DNA of 64,000 bases, taken from a phage. The notes beneath the pieces were generated by a model. It did not search any database. It was not told the origin of the DNA and was given only the letters and a program-made list of their open reading frames with translations. Positions 1 through 43,034 of this stretch are shown here, one piece after another. The stretch's first letter is position 1, and every line of letters begins with the position of its first letter. A program made the position numbers and the translations under genes. Where the stretch lies: the NCBI GenBank assembly GCA_018509705.1, contig GCA_018509705.1_3630.1; one strand, given 5' to 3'.

Positions 1-178
1 CTCGCCCCTCGTAGGCGAGTGCCAATGAAGGGCCGACACTACCCATAGTAAGTAATAAATTTAAAACATGGTACTTAGGATCTAATATATTCTACATAAG
101 TTAAGTATATGTACTTAGTACCATAAGTACTAGATCTTTTGTTTTTTATTATTTAGTTATTTTAGTTATATTCTTTAT

Positions 179-222
179 GTGTCCGTATCACGGACAGTTA
201 GTGTCCGTATTACGGACAGTTA
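179..222. repeat. Two tandem 22-bp units (GTGTCCGTATCACGGACAGTTA / GTGTCCGTATTACGGACAGTTA), each with a 7-bp-arm palindrome TGTCCGT-N3-ACGGACA
   Basis: Read directly from sequence; operator-like dyad symmetry in non-coding leader. Confidence 0.8.
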
Positions 223-293
223 CTAACCTCTGTTCCAGAGCGAACATAAAACATACGAATCCTTATAGTACAGATATTTAAGTTTTTACTGGT

Positions 294-644
294 CTAACCA
301 GTTGTTGACATTCGAATAACTTCTTCTGGTGGCAAAACTTTGGAAAATGTGCATCTTTTACCTCTCCCTTGTGTGGATATTTCAACCACTCCCGCACATT
401 CTAAAGTTTTAACGCACGCTGCTGCTTTTGTTTTCTTTATTCCAACATCTGCTGCAATTTTCCTTGTGCTGGGTGTGAAGCGTGAACTTCCTCCAAGCTT
501 ATACCAGTTGTGCAGGTAGCAGTATACGATCTTGTCATACAAGTCAAGAACAACAACCTCCCCAGTTGTGTCATTCAAAACTTTTGACATAGATAGTATT
601 TCAAGGGGGACTTTAAGATATAGCAGCTTATCCCCATCTTTCAT
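294..644 (-). CDS. Hypothetical protein, possible helix-turn-helix DNA-binding protein
   Basis: 116-aa ORF; segment TRKIAADVGIKKTKAAACVKTLECAGVVE resembles an HTH/winged-helix recognition region. Confidence 0.4.
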   Translation of the reverse strand: MKDGDKLLYLKVPLEILSMSKVLNDTTGEVVVLDLYDKIVYCYLHNWYKLGGSSRFTPSTRKIAADVGIKKTKAAACVKTLECAGVVEISTQGRGKRCTFSKVLPPEEVIRMSTTG

Positions 645-691
645 ATCTCCTGATTCTCCTTGTGTGGCAATTTTCTTTAAAATAGCAGGGA

Positions 692-1246
692 TTACTCCCC
701 GCTGTCAATAGCAAAACTCATTGCAATACGGTATGCCTCTTCTAATGGTAAGAGTCTCCCCCACACATCCCAACCGACATCAAACTGTCTGCCAAACAAC
801 TGTTGTGTGGTTCCGTGAGCATGACCGAACAGTTGGACTGATCCGTGAGGCTTTCTGTTCCACTTTGCAAACTGGTAATGGCTCATACAGATCAAATTCT
901 TGTTGTGGCGAAGCTCGTAATAATCTACAACCTCATGACCGAACTCTTTCATAATTCTGACAGTCGTCCTTGTGTCATGGTTACCACGAACAAGAATAAT
1001 ATGTCCGTTCAACATATTTAGAACATCTGGGAGCAATTTGTTGATATTCTTATCATTAGTGCACGCAATATCTCCCAAGTGAAACACAGTGTCTGCAGGT
1101 GACACAACAGAGTTCCACTTGGTGATGATTCCCGCATTCATACTGTCAAGATTGTGATCATACTGAGATCTGTGTTTTTGACATGAGTCGAACTCCATGA
1201 CCCGCTGGTGGAGAAAGTGTGTGTCGCTTGTTACAAAGTATTTCAT
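692..1246 (-). CDS. Calcineurin-like metallophosphoesterase (Ser/Thr phosphatase-like)
   Basis: Motifs VTSDTHFLH, HLGDIA and VRGNHD match the metallophosphatase signature; start moved to internal Met (MKYF) to remove overlap with upstream gene. Confidence 0.75.
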   Translation of the reverse strand: MKYFVTSDTHFLHQRVMEFDSCQKHRSQYDHNLDSMNAGIITKWNSVVSPADTVFHLGDIACTNDKNINKLLPDVLNMLNGHIILVRGNHDTRTTVRIMKEFGHEVVDYYELRHNKNLICMSHYQFAKWNRKPHGSVQLFGHAHGTTQQLFGRQFDVGWDVWGRLLPLEEAYRIAMSFAIDSGE

Positions 1247-1253
1247 ACATTCC

Positions 1254-1721
1254 TCATTTAAGTTTAATGCAGTTTTTAAGCTGGCGTTCCATACGATCCA
1301 CAACCCTGTCTGGAACATCATGAATGCTTTTATTACCATGGCGGTTTTCAACCACGATCACGGTATAACTATACCCATGACTGATCGCCATGTCAATATA
1401 TTCTTGCACATATTTTTCTTTTGTAAACGTATTACTTACCACGATACGGTCGTATCCCATACGCATCATATCTTCTACGTTATCTTTGCACCATTTTGCT
1501 GCAAGTGTTACTTTACTTGCATCCCAGTTGTAATTTCCATCATCGTCGTACCAGAACATGTCGTTCTCAAAATGTGGATACAGACCTTCTAAAGATAGCG
1601 CATTTGCCAGTGTTGATTTGCCAGACCCTGGTAGACCACGCACGATATATAGCATTTTAGACATAGTAATCCTCCGTTTTAATTTCAACGATAGTATACC
1701 CAACTGTTTTGTTAATTTCAA
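1254..1721 (-). CDS. P-loop NTPase, polynucleotide-kinase-like
   Basis: Walker A GLPGSGKST near N-terminus; about 150 aa; immediately upstream of the phosphatase on same strand; start may be internal Met (MSKMLYIV). Confidence 0.6.
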   Translation of the reverse strand: MKLTKQLGILSLKLKRRITMSKMLYIVRGLPGSGKSTLANALSLEGLYPHFENDMFWYDDDGNYNWDASKVTLAAKWCKDNVEDMMRMGYDRIVVSNTFTKEKYVQEYIDMAISHGYSYTVIVVENRHGNKSIHDVPDRVVDRMERQLKNCIKLK

Positions 1722-1724
1722 GTG

Positions 1725-1758
1725 TTGACACTAGGTTATTTGTGTGGCAGGATAGACT
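1725..1758 (+). promoter_or_regulatory. Candidate sigma70-type promoter (TTGACA at 1725-1730, weak -10)
   Basis: Exact -35 hexamer upstream of first + strand gene; -10 is poor. Confidence 0.35.
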
Positions 1759-1785
1759 GACAAAATGACAAATGAGGAATGTATA

Positions 1786-38943: not shown

Positions 38944-39207
38944 ATGAACATCCTGATGTGGGTTATAGCAGTGGCGTTTGTTGCATGTTTTTGCTGCTGG
39001 GTTGCGGTGAGGATTTCTGTAGCTACCCTTCGGAAGTTGGGGTTCTCAGAATGGGATATTAATATCCTTTCTTTTCGCAATGAAACAATCTCAGCCGCCC
39101 TGCTTTGTAAGAAATTTAAGTGGGAACCTTGTGAGGTCATGAGCTATCTAAGAACAGGCGATATCCCTGAAAGATTTAAAAAAGTTCTTGACGGCAAGGA
39201 TAAATGA
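38944..39207 (+). CDS. Small membrane protein
   Basis: N-terminal TM helix WVIAVAFVACFCCWVAV. Confidence 0.45.
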   Translation: MNILMWVIAVAFVACFCCWVAVRISVATLRKLGFSEWDINILSFRNETISAALLCKKFKWEPCEVMSYLRTGDIPERFKKVLDGKDK

Positions 39208-39362
39208 CAGTATAGTGACTAACAAGAGGTGAGGGGTGACTGATTTTACTGAAGCTTTAATGACGGCCTTGTCTGTTTTAGCGCTATCGGTGTGTTTTGG
39301 GGCGTTATTCACATCTCTGGTTAAAGTTTTACATACAGTATTATTACCCAAGGAGCGCAGTA

Positions 39363-39614
39363 ATGACGAAGATTGACTTGAATGCTGGTGATCATGTTGT
39401 TGTCAAATGCGTTGGAGATTATCTTGGATTCACAATCGGCAATACTTACGAGGCGGTAGTGGCGAAGGTTTATCATGATAAAGTCCTCAGTCTTGTATTT
39501 GACTGTGATGATGACGGAGATGACCGTTACGTCTGTGAGGTGCTGGCTCGTGACGATAGTGAAGACCAGAAATTCCTGGTTATTGAACTGAACGGTATTT
39601 TTGTAGAACGTTAA
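39363..39614 (+). CDS. Hypothetical protein
   Basis: ATG with AAGGAG RBS inside track ORF 39297. Confidence 0.4.
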   Translation: MTKIDLNAGDHVVVKCVGDYLGFTIGNTYEAVVAKVYHDKVLSLVFDCDDDGDDRYVCEVLARDDSEDQKFLVIELNGIFVER

Positions 39615-39642
39615 TTTAAAACAACATAAGGAGACTCTTACT

Positions 39643-39948
39643 ATGGCTAAATCTAAAGTTGAACTGTTCACCTCTCTTCCTTCTGACACTGCAGAACGTG
39701 ATCGCCTTCGCAAAACAATTGAAGAACTGGTGGAACTCCAGCTTCAGATTAAAGATTTGAAAGATGCCATCAAGGATATCATTCTTGTTGAGAAGCAGGA
39801 TCATCTGTATTCTCCTAAATTCATCAAATCTCTGGTGGCTACCGAGTTCGATATTCGCTATGAGGCTGAAAAACGTCGCGCTAAAATCGAAGAAGAGGTT
39901 GAGCACATGTCTGAGGCAGACATTCTGTTCAAACGCTCTGTAGAATAA
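39643..39948 (+). CDS. Hypothetical coiled-coil protein
   Basis: 101 aa, charged heptad-like sequence; strong RBS; followed by strong terminator. Confidence 0.5.
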   Translation: MAKSKVELFTSLPSDTAERDRLRKTIEELVELQLQIKDLKDAIKDIILVEKQDHLYSPKFIKSLVATEFDIRYEAEKRRAKIEEEVEHMSEADILFKRSVE

Positions 39949-39953
39949 TGACA

Positions 39954-39980
39954 AAGAGGGGGGCTTGGGCCCCTCTTTTT
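39954..39980 (+). terminator. Rho-independent terminator
   Basis: AAGAGGGGGGCTTGGGCCCCTCTT hairpin plus TTT. Confidence 0.65.
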
Positions 39981-40003
39981 ACTATCTATGAAGGAGATTT
40001 GAG

Positions 40004-40330
40004 ATGGGTATACCGATTACTGTAAAAGAGCTAAATGAACGTGATGCAGGTGGTCTATGGCCTGCACGAAAAATCCGCTGCGTCTATATGAAAGAGAATC
40101 TTGAACATCTTGATCAACAGATAAAGGTCGGCGATATTTTCGAGGTCTTCTATTCCAATCGGCGCAACTGGGAAACCATTCAGCCTTCTGGTTTTGTTCT
40201 TGCCAAACTTGACACTGGAGAAGTGATTATCCCTGGGTTGGATATTGTCTTCGAAATTATCCAGGAGTGGGATCCGGATAAGATTAGATACGAAGAATTA
40301 TTCGGTAAAGGTATTATCAAACCTGTGTGA
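40004..40330 (+). CDS. Hypothetical protein
   Basis: 108-aa ORF with GAAGGAGA RBS. Confidence 0.45.
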   Translation: MGIPITVKELNERDAGGLWPARKIRCVYMKENLEHLDQQIKVGDIFEVFYSNRRNWETIQPSGFVLAKLDTGEVIIPGLDIVFEIIQEWDPDKIRYEELFGKGIIKPV

Positions 40331-40338
40331 GGTGGATT

Positions 40339-40638
40339 ATGTCTACAAAGGCGGCTAAATACTCCTATATGCCATCAACCTCTGCAGAGGTAGACTTTAG
40401 TTTCGATGTGTTTCCACTGTTTGAGGTGGTTCTGGCATACCCAACAATACTATCTACTCCTGAATCACTTGTGCCTGTTAAGTTGCAGAACGCTATGCAT
40501 TCTATGCACTACAACAATAAATGTAGGCACAGATGGTGTCAGGACGAGGAGAGAGATTTGGATAGTTTGAGAGATTTTGACAGTCACCTTTTGACACCTT
40601 TCAGCTACTCCAACCTTGATAAGCCTTCATGGGTATAG
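40339..40638 (+). CDS. Hypothetical protein
   Basis: Start reset to ATG 40339 with GAGGTGG RBS. Confidence 0.4.
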   Translation: MSTKAAKYSYMPSTSAEVDFSFDVFPLFEVVLAYPTILSTPESLVPVKLQNAMHSMHYNNKCRHRWCQDEERDLDSLRDFDSHLLTPFSYSNLDKPSWV

Positions 40639-40663
40639 CAAAATATCAAATTTAAGACACCTA

Positions 40664-40690
40664 GGACGCTCTGTGGCGTCCTTTTCTTTA
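40664..40690 (+). terminator. Rho-independent terminator
   Basis: AGGACGCTCTGTGGCGTCCT hairpin plus T-tract. Confidence 0.6.
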
Positions 40691-40851
40691 TATGGTGCAC
40701 GATTGCATACCTTGGACAAATAATCTCGTTACAGAGCGTTTAAGGACGGTCTACAAACAAATCTCTCTTTCGAGCGTAGCGAGAACGCACGTCCGTTTTG
40801 ACCCAAATCACCATACGCTCGGATTTTAACCAAACCCTCGCGGCGTTTCTG

Positions 40852-40880
40852 TTGACACATTACCGCTCCAGTGATAGTAT
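40852..40880 (+). promoter_or_regulatory. Sigma70-type promoter (TTGACA-17-TAGTAT)
   Basis: Read directly. Confidence 0.55.
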
Positions 40881-40912
40881 CCACACATAGTTTGTAGAAT
40901 ATGGAGTACACA

Positions 40913-41002
40913 ATGAGAACATTGTCCGAAGTTTTAGTGGTGATCCTGATGATTATTACGTCCATAGCGGCTGTTGCCGGAATACTCACGGGTGGAACAT
41001 GA
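40913..41002 (+). CDS. Small hydrophobic peptide (29 aa)
   Basis: Hand-translated MRTLSEVLVVILMIITSIAAVAGILTGGT; GGAG RBS; ATGA overlap with next ORF. Confidence 0.4.
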   Translation: MRTLSEVLVVILMIITSIAAVAGILTGGT

Positions 41003-41211
41003 TCAACACACATGCATCTGAAGAGACATCCGAAGGAGTGACCATATGTCCCTTGGCTGATCCAGTGAAAGAGGAAAACTTCGATTCTGAAGATTCTCCA
41101 TCTTCGCTCCAGGTAGATCCTGAGGCTGATGATCTAACGTGGGAAGACATCGTAGACATCTGGTTCTCTATTATGCCTGAGCACGAAGAGTTCAGGGGTG
41201 GTAGACTATGA
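40999..41211 (+). CDS. Small highly acidic protein
   Basis: 70 aa rich in D/E. Confidence 0.4.
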   Translation: MINTHASEETSEGVTICPLADPVKEENFDSEDSPSSLQVDPEADDLTWEDIVDIWFSIMPEHEEFRGGRL

Positions 41212-41332
41212 AGCACCGAGCCCACACAGGTTCCTCATGCTAAAGCATGGCCTGAAGAGGCAAACGTGCATAATTCCAGTGCATTGGAACGTATAAAACC
41301 CAGTTCACACTCTCATTTCCAGAGGAGATTTC

Positions 41333-41548
41333 ATGAAGATAGAAATATTTGGTGGAGCTGACAACACTCGTGGCCTGATTTACCTTGAGTTCGATGAATC
41401 ATACCTGCCAGAGGTGTTAAATATGGACTCTGTTGCTGATGCTTTGGGAGTAAGTCCTAAAGATCTCTACTCTGGTGCTGAGATTGATGGTTGGGAGGAG
41501 ACCATGAACATTGATTTCAGTGAAGTAGGTGATGAACCACTGGACTGA
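41333..41548 (+). CDS. Small acidic protein (family A-like start MKIEIF)
   Basis: 71 aa; AGAGGAGA RBS. Confidence 0.45.
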   Translation: MKIEIFGGADNTRGLIYLEFDESYLPEVLNMDSVADALGVSPKDLYSGAEIDGWEETMNIDFSEVGDEPLD

Positions 41549-43034
41549 CACACAATTAGCTACCCGGCTAAAGTGCTGGGAGCACCTATAACACATCTTT
41601 CAACTAAATTTCCCACCACCACAATCACTTACCTCCCACACATGACTGTTTGCTTGTTTAGTGAGCAGTCATGCCTTGACATTCTTGCCTATCCTGATAA
41701 AATTAAGTTCTTCTCTTTTCTTTTACCGAGTAATTCGGGTTTTCTGTTCTCTTCGGTTTGAAGGGGGTATGGAGATACACCTGAGTGAACAGGGTGAACA
41801 ACCGAACCATTGGCTATGGCATTAGCATGGCGAAGCGGACGGGTGACGAAAGAGGGGCCGGAGGACACCAGTCACTGCCATATGATATATGGGTGATAAC
41901 CTGAAGAATCTGAATAAGTGTTTAAGTACCAGTCAGAGGAAAAGGTGAATGGTAGCTGAAGGGGAGGGGGGTTTCTTGTATCTTTAATTTGTATATTATG
42001 TATACACTTGTAAACCAATTTCATCTGAATCTGTTTACCACACAAAGTGGATAGAGACAAATATTACCTATTAAACTTGAATTATTTATAGAAAATACCA
42101 CAACACCACTTAAGTCTTTGATTTTACACACAAATCCTGCAGATATTCAACCTCCATATTTAACATACTTGTAACATATTCCATACTCTACCTGCCTGAT
42201 CAATTTCCCCAACTACATCCCCCATATTTTCCCTGTCTGTACTACCCCTGCCCCGCCGGGAGTCCCGTCATATCTGGCTTTCCAGCAAATATCACACCCA
42301 CAAATATCATTGCCTGAAGAGGGTTTCATCCCATAATACCTGCCTTGCCTGAAGAGGGTTTCATACGCCACGTAAATTTTTTAATTGACCCCTCCCCGCC
42401 GCCGGAAAGGTTGGCTTTTCTCGCACAGACCTGAAGAGTCAGCCAGAAATATCTGAATAGGCCCAATTCTACCCCGATTTTGACCTGACCTACAGGAGCG
42501 CTGCCCTGTCAGGAGCCGTAGCGACTGGAGTGCTGCCAGGCGGACGAAATGGGAATACTTCTCATTCTTATAACAATTCTCAAATATCGAGGCAGTGAGG
42601 CAAATTAATAGGCCAGGCCGTTCACACAGTGGCACAACATTTGCAACCTATCCTGTGGGGATGAATGAGAATACCTATCATTGTGAGAACCATTATCATT
42701 ACGGGCAATTTAACATAATACCCATTATGCGCACCACTGGCGATACATACAGGGATTGATAACATGGGTTACTGTTTACGCACATAACAATTATATTTCT
42801 TACCATTTGTGTGGGATATAGTTAGCAGCCGATAGATTAGATATTAACCTGCAGACTTCTGACCGTCCAGACGTCTAAACGCCCACACACCAAGGATTAT
42901 ACATACACTCCTGAATGTAAACAGGGCCGCAAAAATGCTACCATACAAGCTTGTAAATTTTTCATGCAGCACTTGACAAAGAGGAGAAAAACTTGTCTGA
43001 CATAATGTGACCTAACTGACACAACATGACACTT

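Follow-up and report, generated by a model that had tools for sequence, protein, structure and literature searches.

A non-coding stretch with tandem palindromes, lying beside a gene for a small DNA-binding protein, raises the question of whether it serves transcription, packaging or replication. Such a stretch stands at the start of the window, the 64,000-nucleotide piece of phage DNA analyzed here. The window belongs to an rV5-like coliphage (Vequintavirus), and its first 3 kb matches 120 phage records at 90-99% identity. Phages of this type are widely isolated and are used in the typing and biocontrol of E. coli O157. PLSDB also contains a complete rV5-like genome (CP057073.1, 137,565 bp), entered as the non-mobilizable "plasmid" of an isolate of E. 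coli obtained from pooled cattle feces, which could be a carrier state or contamination. A sequence-only reading had taken the first 290 positions for a leader with operator-like sites, and had proposed a protein-binding control region or a genome-terminus element.

The intergenic region and its tandem dyads

Window positions 1-293 are non-coding and form part of a 625-710 bp intergenic region cut by the window edge. In relatives, ∼325 bp more of this region lies to the left of that edge. The region is flanked by rV5 gp073 (a 192-aa hypothetical protein, left of the window) and rV5 gp075 (116 aa), both encoded on the - strand. Because of this orientation the region lies 3' of the winged-helix-turn-helix (wHTH) gene and is no leader, and the gene has a promoter-like site of its own (Table 1). 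Calling the repeats operators also fits the layout poorly, with the sites about 70 bp beyond the stop codon and no sigma70-like promoter in 1-293 by a simple scan for sigma70-type sites. The idea of a genome-terminus element was not supported. The genomes of 119 related phages run on unbroken past the window start and the rV5 genome is reported to be circularly permuted (PMC3606486), so the window start is most likely an arbitrary cut. A search of both strands of 1-700 gave no intrinsic terminator-like site, and the sequence after the array hairpins is A-rich or mixed. With no such site in its way, transcription from the promoter upstream of the wHTH gene would be expected to cross the gene and then read through the tandem units and the AT-rich block.

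Table 1. Coordinates of features at the rV5-like locus (window positions) and of same-dyad arrays on other contigs (contig positions)
Feature	Position	Strand	Basis or remark
GC-rich element, right-hand end	1..45		Nearly invariant in 12 relatives; most of the element lies left of the window
AT-rich block, candidate DNA-unwinding element	46..178		Composition and repeats
Candidate iteron array, two 22-bp units (179-200, 201-222)	179..222		Tandem dyads; proposed sites for the 294..644 product
Spacer from array to wHTH stop codon, 71 bp	223..293		13-sequence alignment
wHTH gene, 116 aa, rV5 gp075	294..644	-	Pfam, PHROG, PDB, AF2/Foldseek
Sigma70-like promoter TTGACA-18-TATTTT with TG, upstream of wHTH gene	679..708	-	Consensus scan; P76 in rV5 RefSeq
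Array inside or at end of HTH_36-like wHTH ORF	L266 2258-2406		Unrelated metagenome/MAG contig
Array inside or at end of HTH_36-like wHTH ORF	L278 2338-2450		Unrelated metagenome/MAG contig
Array inside or at end of HTH_36-like wHTH ORF	L300 2085-2200		Unrelated metagenome/MAG contig
Array inside or at end of HTH_36-like wHTH ORF	L312 6202-6290		Unrelated metagenome/MAG contig
Array inside or at end of HTH_36-like wHTH ORF	L354 5005-5110		Unrelated metagenome/MAG contig
Array inside or at end of HTH_36-like wHTH ORF	L330 756-820		Unrelated metagenome/MAG contig
Array inside or at end of HTH_36-like wHTH ORF	L194 1495-1585		Unrelated metagenome/MAG contig
Array inside or at end of HTH_36-like wHTH ORF	L294 1031-1096		Unrelated metagenome/MAG contig

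The two tandem units with the dyad TGTCCGT-N3-ACGGACA, pointed out in the sequence-only reading, were confirmed. They are direct 22-nt repeats, 95% identical to each other, and each contains a 7+3+7 dyad (180-196 and 202-218). At up to 2 mismatches, the dyad pattern gave 3 matches in 64 kb where 0.11 were expected, and none of 100 shuffles reached 3. Its two perfect matches in 64 kb are the array itself, which is also the top-scoring tandem repeat of the window in Tandem Repeats Finder. Across the complete rV5 genome (137,947 bp), the dyad with at most 1 mismatch was found at one locus alone (65,152-65,232). The motif thus literally occurs nowhere else in rV5, which does not refute a function, since uniqueness is expected for an origin. 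Some GenBank records label the array merely as "repeat_region".

Conservation in related phages, whose lack would have spoken against the same reading, was also observed. The unit was kept in the 12 relatives and 3 metagenome contigs examined, in 2, 3, 4 (the commonest) or 6 copies. Intervals measure 22 bp for the first and 21 bp for those after it, giving a period of 21-22 bp. The unit consensus across relatives is G-TGTCCG-N5-CGGACA-G, with half-sites TGTCCG/CGGACA almost invariant and a variable 5-bp center (ATC, ATT, GTG, CTC, CAC). Rare half-site changes are one-sided, as in ACGGGCA (common in copy 2), and no compensatory double changes were seen in the 6-bp core, so the stem sequence is conserved beyond mere pairing. 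Half-site centers lie 11 bp apart and units lie two helical turns apart, which places all sites on one face of the duplex. In Logan contig L123, whose protein is 70% identical, the gene-array spacer has diverged while the core CTGTCCGTCACACGGACAG and the 21-bp period are retained. This contig ends within the array (1368-1392), and the start and end of record MG065672.1 also fall inside it. Both breaks arise because assemblers stop at repeats, and they could wrongly be read as a physical end. Among 13 aligned sequences, variation within the intergenic region is highest in the spacer at 224-243 with a small hairpin, CTCTG-TTC-CAGAG.

To the left of the array lies an AT-rich block of about 22-25% GC (22% in window 51-150). 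Its counterpart is the AT-richest 130-bp window of the whole 137,947-bp rV5 genome (19.2% GC), and the block is almost invariant in 12 relatives. It contains three copies of TAAGTAC, GATC at 79-82 and 133-136, T-tracts and the tandem 9-mers TTTAGTTAT (two copies, 152-169). The further inverted repeat that had been placed here at 68-79/116-124 does exist, with its arms corrected to 68-78 and 114-124 (11 nt, 91% complementary). It is probably no constrained hairpin, because L109, the most divergent relative, has a degraded form of it with no compensating changes.

Between the AT-rich block and gp073 lies a conserved GC-rich non-coding element of roughly 300 nt (L001 4760-5045), whose central 100 nt is almost invariant in 12 relatives. 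The CTCGCC/GGCGAG repeat that had been assigned to 1-20 is present at 1-6 and 14-19. It proved to be the inner part of a longer stem in the element, most of which lies outside the window, and is nested in GGCA/UGCC and GGCCC/GGGCC stems. RNAalifold predicted a stable fold for the element with 0 compensatory pairs; no covariation is detectable because the sequences are too conserved. No Rfam family was found for the intergenic region (E-value mode) or for the whole window (gathering mode), and ARAGORN found no credible tRNA. An rli43 match was rejected as spurious, scoring 21.9 bits where the gathering score is 100. In rV5, a 56-aa ORF78 with a GTG start is annotated in the element; this ORF is intact in all relatives, and long ORFs occur there on both strands.

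The cumulative GC-skew minimum of rV5 lies at ∼67 kb, about 1.5 kb from the array at 65.15 kb. It is weak and non-independent evidence, because it coincides with a switch in gene orientation. The rV5 authors had noted that the minimum coincides with the divergent transcription switch; they relied on skew analysis alone and left the origin undefined (PMC3606486). The skew switch at rV5 66,675-66,725 (PMC3606486) corresponds to the divergent junction at window 1721-1765. There, ∼44 bp separate a - strand operon (PNK, phosphoesterase, wHTH) from a + strand block (RNA ligase, Sir2, ligase and others), and promoter-like sites overlap on both strands. Another region, at window about 39,000-41,650 (rV5 104,013-106,618), spans 2.6 kb without an annotated gene in rV5 RefSeq. 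The two gene orientations meet head-on here, the stretch includes the genome's second most AT-rich windows (25% GC), and several ORFs of 70-130 aa lie within it. No notable repeats were found in it.

The neighboring winged-helix protein and known initiators

The gene beside the array, described earlier as HTH-like, encodes a 116-aa protein with a winged-HTH region and is the obvious candidate for the binder. In Pfam, gp075 scored 24.9 bits to DUF6945 (E = 2.3e-5; gathering score 28) and 22.8 bits to HTH_36 (cut-off 25), both just below the cut-off. No Pfam RepA_N (PF06970) match was obtained at E ≤ 1. By sequence, gp075 would be classed as a divergent, borderline member of the RepA_N-type N-terminal domain (NTD)/DUF6945 group. 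In PHROGs it falls in phrog_12838, "replication initiation protein". RefSeq already gives the gene this name, and many records say "putative transcriptional regulator".

The sole clear solved homologue of gp075 is PDB 4RO3 (phmmer E = 7.4e-6, residues 12-90). A family profile (A3) built from gp075 and 17 homologues matched 4RO3 at E = 6.3e-17, and its next matches were generic MarR/CodY-type regulators at E ≥ 0.01. The 4RO3 fragment itself scores 80.7 bits to Pfam DUF6945, i.e., DUF6945 is that domain. In a tblastn search of 50,697 phage records, the fragment matched ICP1 (Odn) and Vequintavirus only. An AF2 model of gp075 from the 18-sequence alignment reached pLDDT 78.6 and pTM 0.76, and a single-sequence model was discarded (pLDDT 43). 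Foldseek matches of the model in the PDB at E ≤ 0.001 were 4ro3, 4pql and 5kbj, all NTDs of RepA initiators, followed by 4pt7 at 1.1e-3. The TM-score to 4ro3 was moderate, at 0.63-0.66. The protein ends at residue 116, directly after the wing, with no C-terminal domain following.

The structure in 4RO3 is that of the Vibrio cholerae PLE RepA NTD; PLE RepA is a RepA_N-type initiator required for PLE replication (PMC7145576). EMSA and genetics established that PLE RepA binds semi-palindromic iterons at the PLE origin (PMC7145576, PMC8263062). The rV5-like locus resembles this system in its homologous DNA-binding domain (36-38% identity over ∼80 aa in tblastn; profile E 6e-17) and in its tandem semi-palindromic repeats, non-coding and beside a gene. 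Replication would likewise rely on a phage-encoded replisome. The nearest homologues of the rV5 DNA polymerase moreover include that of Vibrio phage ICP1_2001_A (PMC3606486). Unlike gp075, PLE RepA has a C-terminal domain. The PLE iterons number three, are about 30 bp long and have a poly-A center, whereas rV5-like arrays consist of 2-6 units, each 21-22 bp long and containing a 17-bp dyad. PLE is a satellite, while the rV5-like array lies in the phage's own genome, and binding and origin function are proven for PLE but predicted for rV5-like phages.

The ICP1 nuclease Odn (Gp88) uses a 4RO3-type domain to find PLE iterons (PMC8263062). Odn and gp075 share the DUF6945-type domain, and its recognition of iterons in Odn indicates that the domain works as a portable iteron reader. 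In contrast to gp075, which has no nuclease domain and whose proposed sites lie in its own genome, Odn joins the domain to a GIY-YIG/T5orf172 nuclease and targets a foreign origin. The function of the RepA_N/DUF6945 domain in Gram-negative systems has been characterized only in the Vibrio PLE/ICP1 arms race (2019 paper). If gp075 binds its array, it would be a candidate for extending this iteron-reader domain to coliphages.

According to PMC7145576, the staphylococcal RepA_N initiator dimer binds iterons with inverted sub-repeats. The pSK41/pTZ2162 RepA_N proteins (4pql, 4pt7, 5kbj) share the NTD fold with gp075 (Foldseek E 2e-4 to 1e-3). Nevertheless, TM-scores to these structures were only 0.50-0.56, and gp075 has no detectable Pfam RepA_N match. 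The staphylococcal plasmid initiators also carry a host-specific C-terminal domain, which gp075 does not. Iterons of RepA_N plasmids are located within the rep gene, and convergence on a poly-A tract, often inside that gene, is usual for known RepA_N iterons. The array studied here has a center of 3-5 mixed bases and lies outside the gene, which counts against reading it as an origin. A further comparison is ori-lambda, in which about four dyad iterons of roughly 19 bp are bound by dimers of the N-terminal winged-helix domain of O. These iterons adjoin an AT-rich tract, the origin is activated by nearby transcription, and iteron number varies among lambdoid phages. The origin lies inside the O gene, and the C-terminal domain of O recruits P-DnaB. 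The dyad iteron array, the winged-helix reader, the AT-rich neighbor and the varying copy number are common to lambda and the proposed rV5-like module. Unlike ori-lambda, the rV5-like array is outside the gene of its proposed reader.

Distant homologues and further occurrences of the dyad

Distant homologues of gp075 were found in uncultured phages. They are 182-195 aa long, about 30% identical, and carry a C-terminal tail. These genes adjoin a divergent intergenic region of roughly 500 bp, in which two YAGGTACA motifs, spaced 22 bp apart, come after an AT/T-rich tract. In contig L124, 5 of 5 YAGGTACA copies of the 10.6-kb locus cluster in that intergenic region against 0.79 expected. Genes nearby encode a primase-helicase and PolA in L124, and PNK and RNA ligase in contig L122. 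Nucleotide homology between the rV5 intergenic region and these two contigs was sought and none was convincing; architecture alone is common to them. An arrangement of an initiator-like gene, phased repeats and an AT tract appears to recur in these distant relatives with another repeat sequence.

The tails of the longer homologues (P0013 and P0020-P0022, 182-195 aa) are acidic, for example ...DCDEAPF and ...YYDTGEPF, and resemble the C-terminal protein-interaction tip of SSB. Such tails might recruit partners, which the tail-less gp075 could not do. In another protein, P0012 (228 aa), a GIY-YIG nuclease domain is joined to a DUF6945 domain, as in the chimeric ICP1 Odn. Origin-directed nucleases may therefore exist outside the ICP1/PLE system.

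At the syntenic site of other Vequintavirinae genera (Hena1, BIS47, EspYZU15, TH18), no homologue and no comparable array were detected, and small ORFs beside the site gave no Pfam match. An origin at this locus, if real, would thus be genus-specific. A search of IMG/VR with the protein and the dyad returned no rV5-like contigs, and the single dyads found there were set aside as chance palindromes. A possible satellite carrying the motif in E. coli chromosomes was also rejected, as neither the motif nor window 1-700 matched any of 5,426 complete RefSeq E. coli genomes.

Tandem-dyad scans of genomes and metagenomes gave, among the matches listed, mostly unrelated contigs or chance occurrences. 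Several unrelated contigs among those matches carry arrays of 3-7 copies of (G/C)TGTCCG-N5-CGGACA(G/C) with a 20-25 bp period. Also among the matches listed, 8 of the ∼13 arrays examined fall within, or at the end of, an ORF opening with an HTH_36-like winged helix (Table 1). In contigs L278 and L330, the array ORF adjoins DnaB, DnaC-like, SF2-helicase or primase-polymerase genes. The N-termini of array-bearing ORFs aligned with the gp075 family profile in hhalign at a probability of 88% (E 3e-6). In lambda O and RepA_N plasmids, too, the array is found inside the ORF of its reader. The scan pattern demanded tandem copies, so the association of arrays with wHTH ORFs is subject to ascertainment bias. 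The occurrence of the same dyad in wHTH ORFs elsewhere is no more than suggestive of an initiator-iteron pairing. Neither gp073 nor ORF78 is similar to these rep-like ORFs, and both were rejected as a missing C-terminal domain of gp075.

A broader and more tentative proposal is that arrays of TGTCCG-N5-CGGACA (∼21-23 bp period) and their HTH_36/DUF6945-like readers form a widespread, undescribed initiator-iteron pairing. It would be found in virulent coliphages and in many uncultured replicons, where the array lies inside the rep gene. The rV5-like phages would have kept only the DNA-binding domain of the initiator, with their array just beyond the gene. Firing would then need a separate partner, possibly the phage SF1B or primase-helicase. 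We regard this as possible rather than probable.

A candidate iteron origin and its alternatives

We lean slightly toward reading positions 46-222, together with gene 294..644(-), as an iteron-type replication origin of rV5-like phages composed of an initiator gene, phased iterons and an AT-rich unwinding tract. The locus has phased tandem repeats beside an initiator-like gene, an AT-rich neighbor and a single conserved location, as iteron origins do. The 22-bp units are most likely iterons and candidate binding sites for the neighboring gp075. As a stand-alone homologue of the RepA_N-type NTD, gp075 would bind each TGTCCG-N5-CGGACA dyad as a dimer, with half-sites one turn apart. The 21-22 bp repeat, equal to two turns, would align 2-6 dimers on one DNA face. 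Bending or oligomerization at the array may then open the adjoining AT-rich tract, on which the phage's own primase-helicase and PolA replisome would load. Read-through transcription from the upstream promoter could possibly assist opening or loading. Binding by gp075, melting of the tract and the start of replication at the array are the steps that we infer.

The main rival is a local regulator. Here the array would be a transcriptional control site on which the wHTH protein acts as a repressor, roadblock or activator. It could govern read-through from a small early operon (PNK, phosphoesterase, wHTH) into gp073, tRNAs, lysis, terminase and structural genes, or a non-sigma70 promoter in the AT-rich block. 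The control region proposed in the sequence-only reading survives to the extent that the region is conserved, non-random and probably protein-binding, and is weak where it called for operators. The position of the array between an early-looking operon and same-strand downstream genes suits regulation, as does the extreme conservation of the AT-rich block, which a promoter region might also show. gp075 is a wHTH without an effector domain, annotated in many records as a putative transcriptional regulator. Consisting of the DNA-binding domain alone, without the presumed replisome-recruiting C-terminal domain, it might just as well be an initiator domain turned regulator. However, the simple scan gave no sigma70-like promoter in or beside the array, and the motif is found at a single place in 138 kb, so gp075 is no general regulator. 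Its nearest solved relatives by both sequence and fold are initiator domains, with generic regulators at least 4 orders of magnitude worse in sequence. The 2-6 phased copies beside the genome's AT-richest tract are also origin-like. We therefore regard regulation as unlikely, though it deserves more weight than the alternatives below.

The units might instead act as RNA, with tandem 7-bp stem-loops in the - strand transcript serving as a 3' stabilizer, a processing site or a factor-dependent terminator. The region folds far better than shuffles (RNA z = -5.2, DNA z = -5.7) and lies just 3' of the gene on the transcribed strand, in an operon without any other predicted terminator. Still, no U-tract follows the hairpins on either strand, and the stem sequence is conserved across copies and relatives beyond what pairing requires. 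Stem changes are one-sided; in the - strand RNA, ACGGGCA in copy 2 would set C against A. Strict phasing at 21-22 bp and conservation of the flanking G's suit recognition of duplex DNA, leaving a role as RNA improbable. Even less probable is a pac site, a physical genome end or an adaptor-bound partition array of the parC/sopC type. Tandem dyad repeats are typical of centromere-like sites and some pac sites as well, terminase genes lie about 4 kb away, and an rV5-like genome has been deposited as a 137.6-kb "plasmid" of an E. coli isolate. Breaks inside the array in two records or contigs also point that way, but they are attributable to assembly at repeats. The phage is virulent, its reported circular permutation and the continuity of related genomes through the array argue against an end, no ParA/ParB-type partner is encoded nearby in the window, and the relatives of gp075 are initiators.

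Returning to the iteron-type origin, the array, its link to gp075 and the origin-like context are absent from the rV5 genome paper (PMC3606486). The parts themselves (iterons, AT tract and RepA_N-like reader) are classical, although a putative initiator made up of the NTD alone is unusual. A concrete candidate of ∼180 bp and a 116-aa candidate binder make the rV5 origin question directly testable. The candidate also hints at a conserved DNA recognition code common to many uncultured replicons. If the reading is true, the module would offer an engineering handle, for example for replicating cargo plasmids or replication-defective mutants. Vequintavirinae would then have their first defined origin, and the ICP1/PLE replication system a counterpart in E. 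coli.
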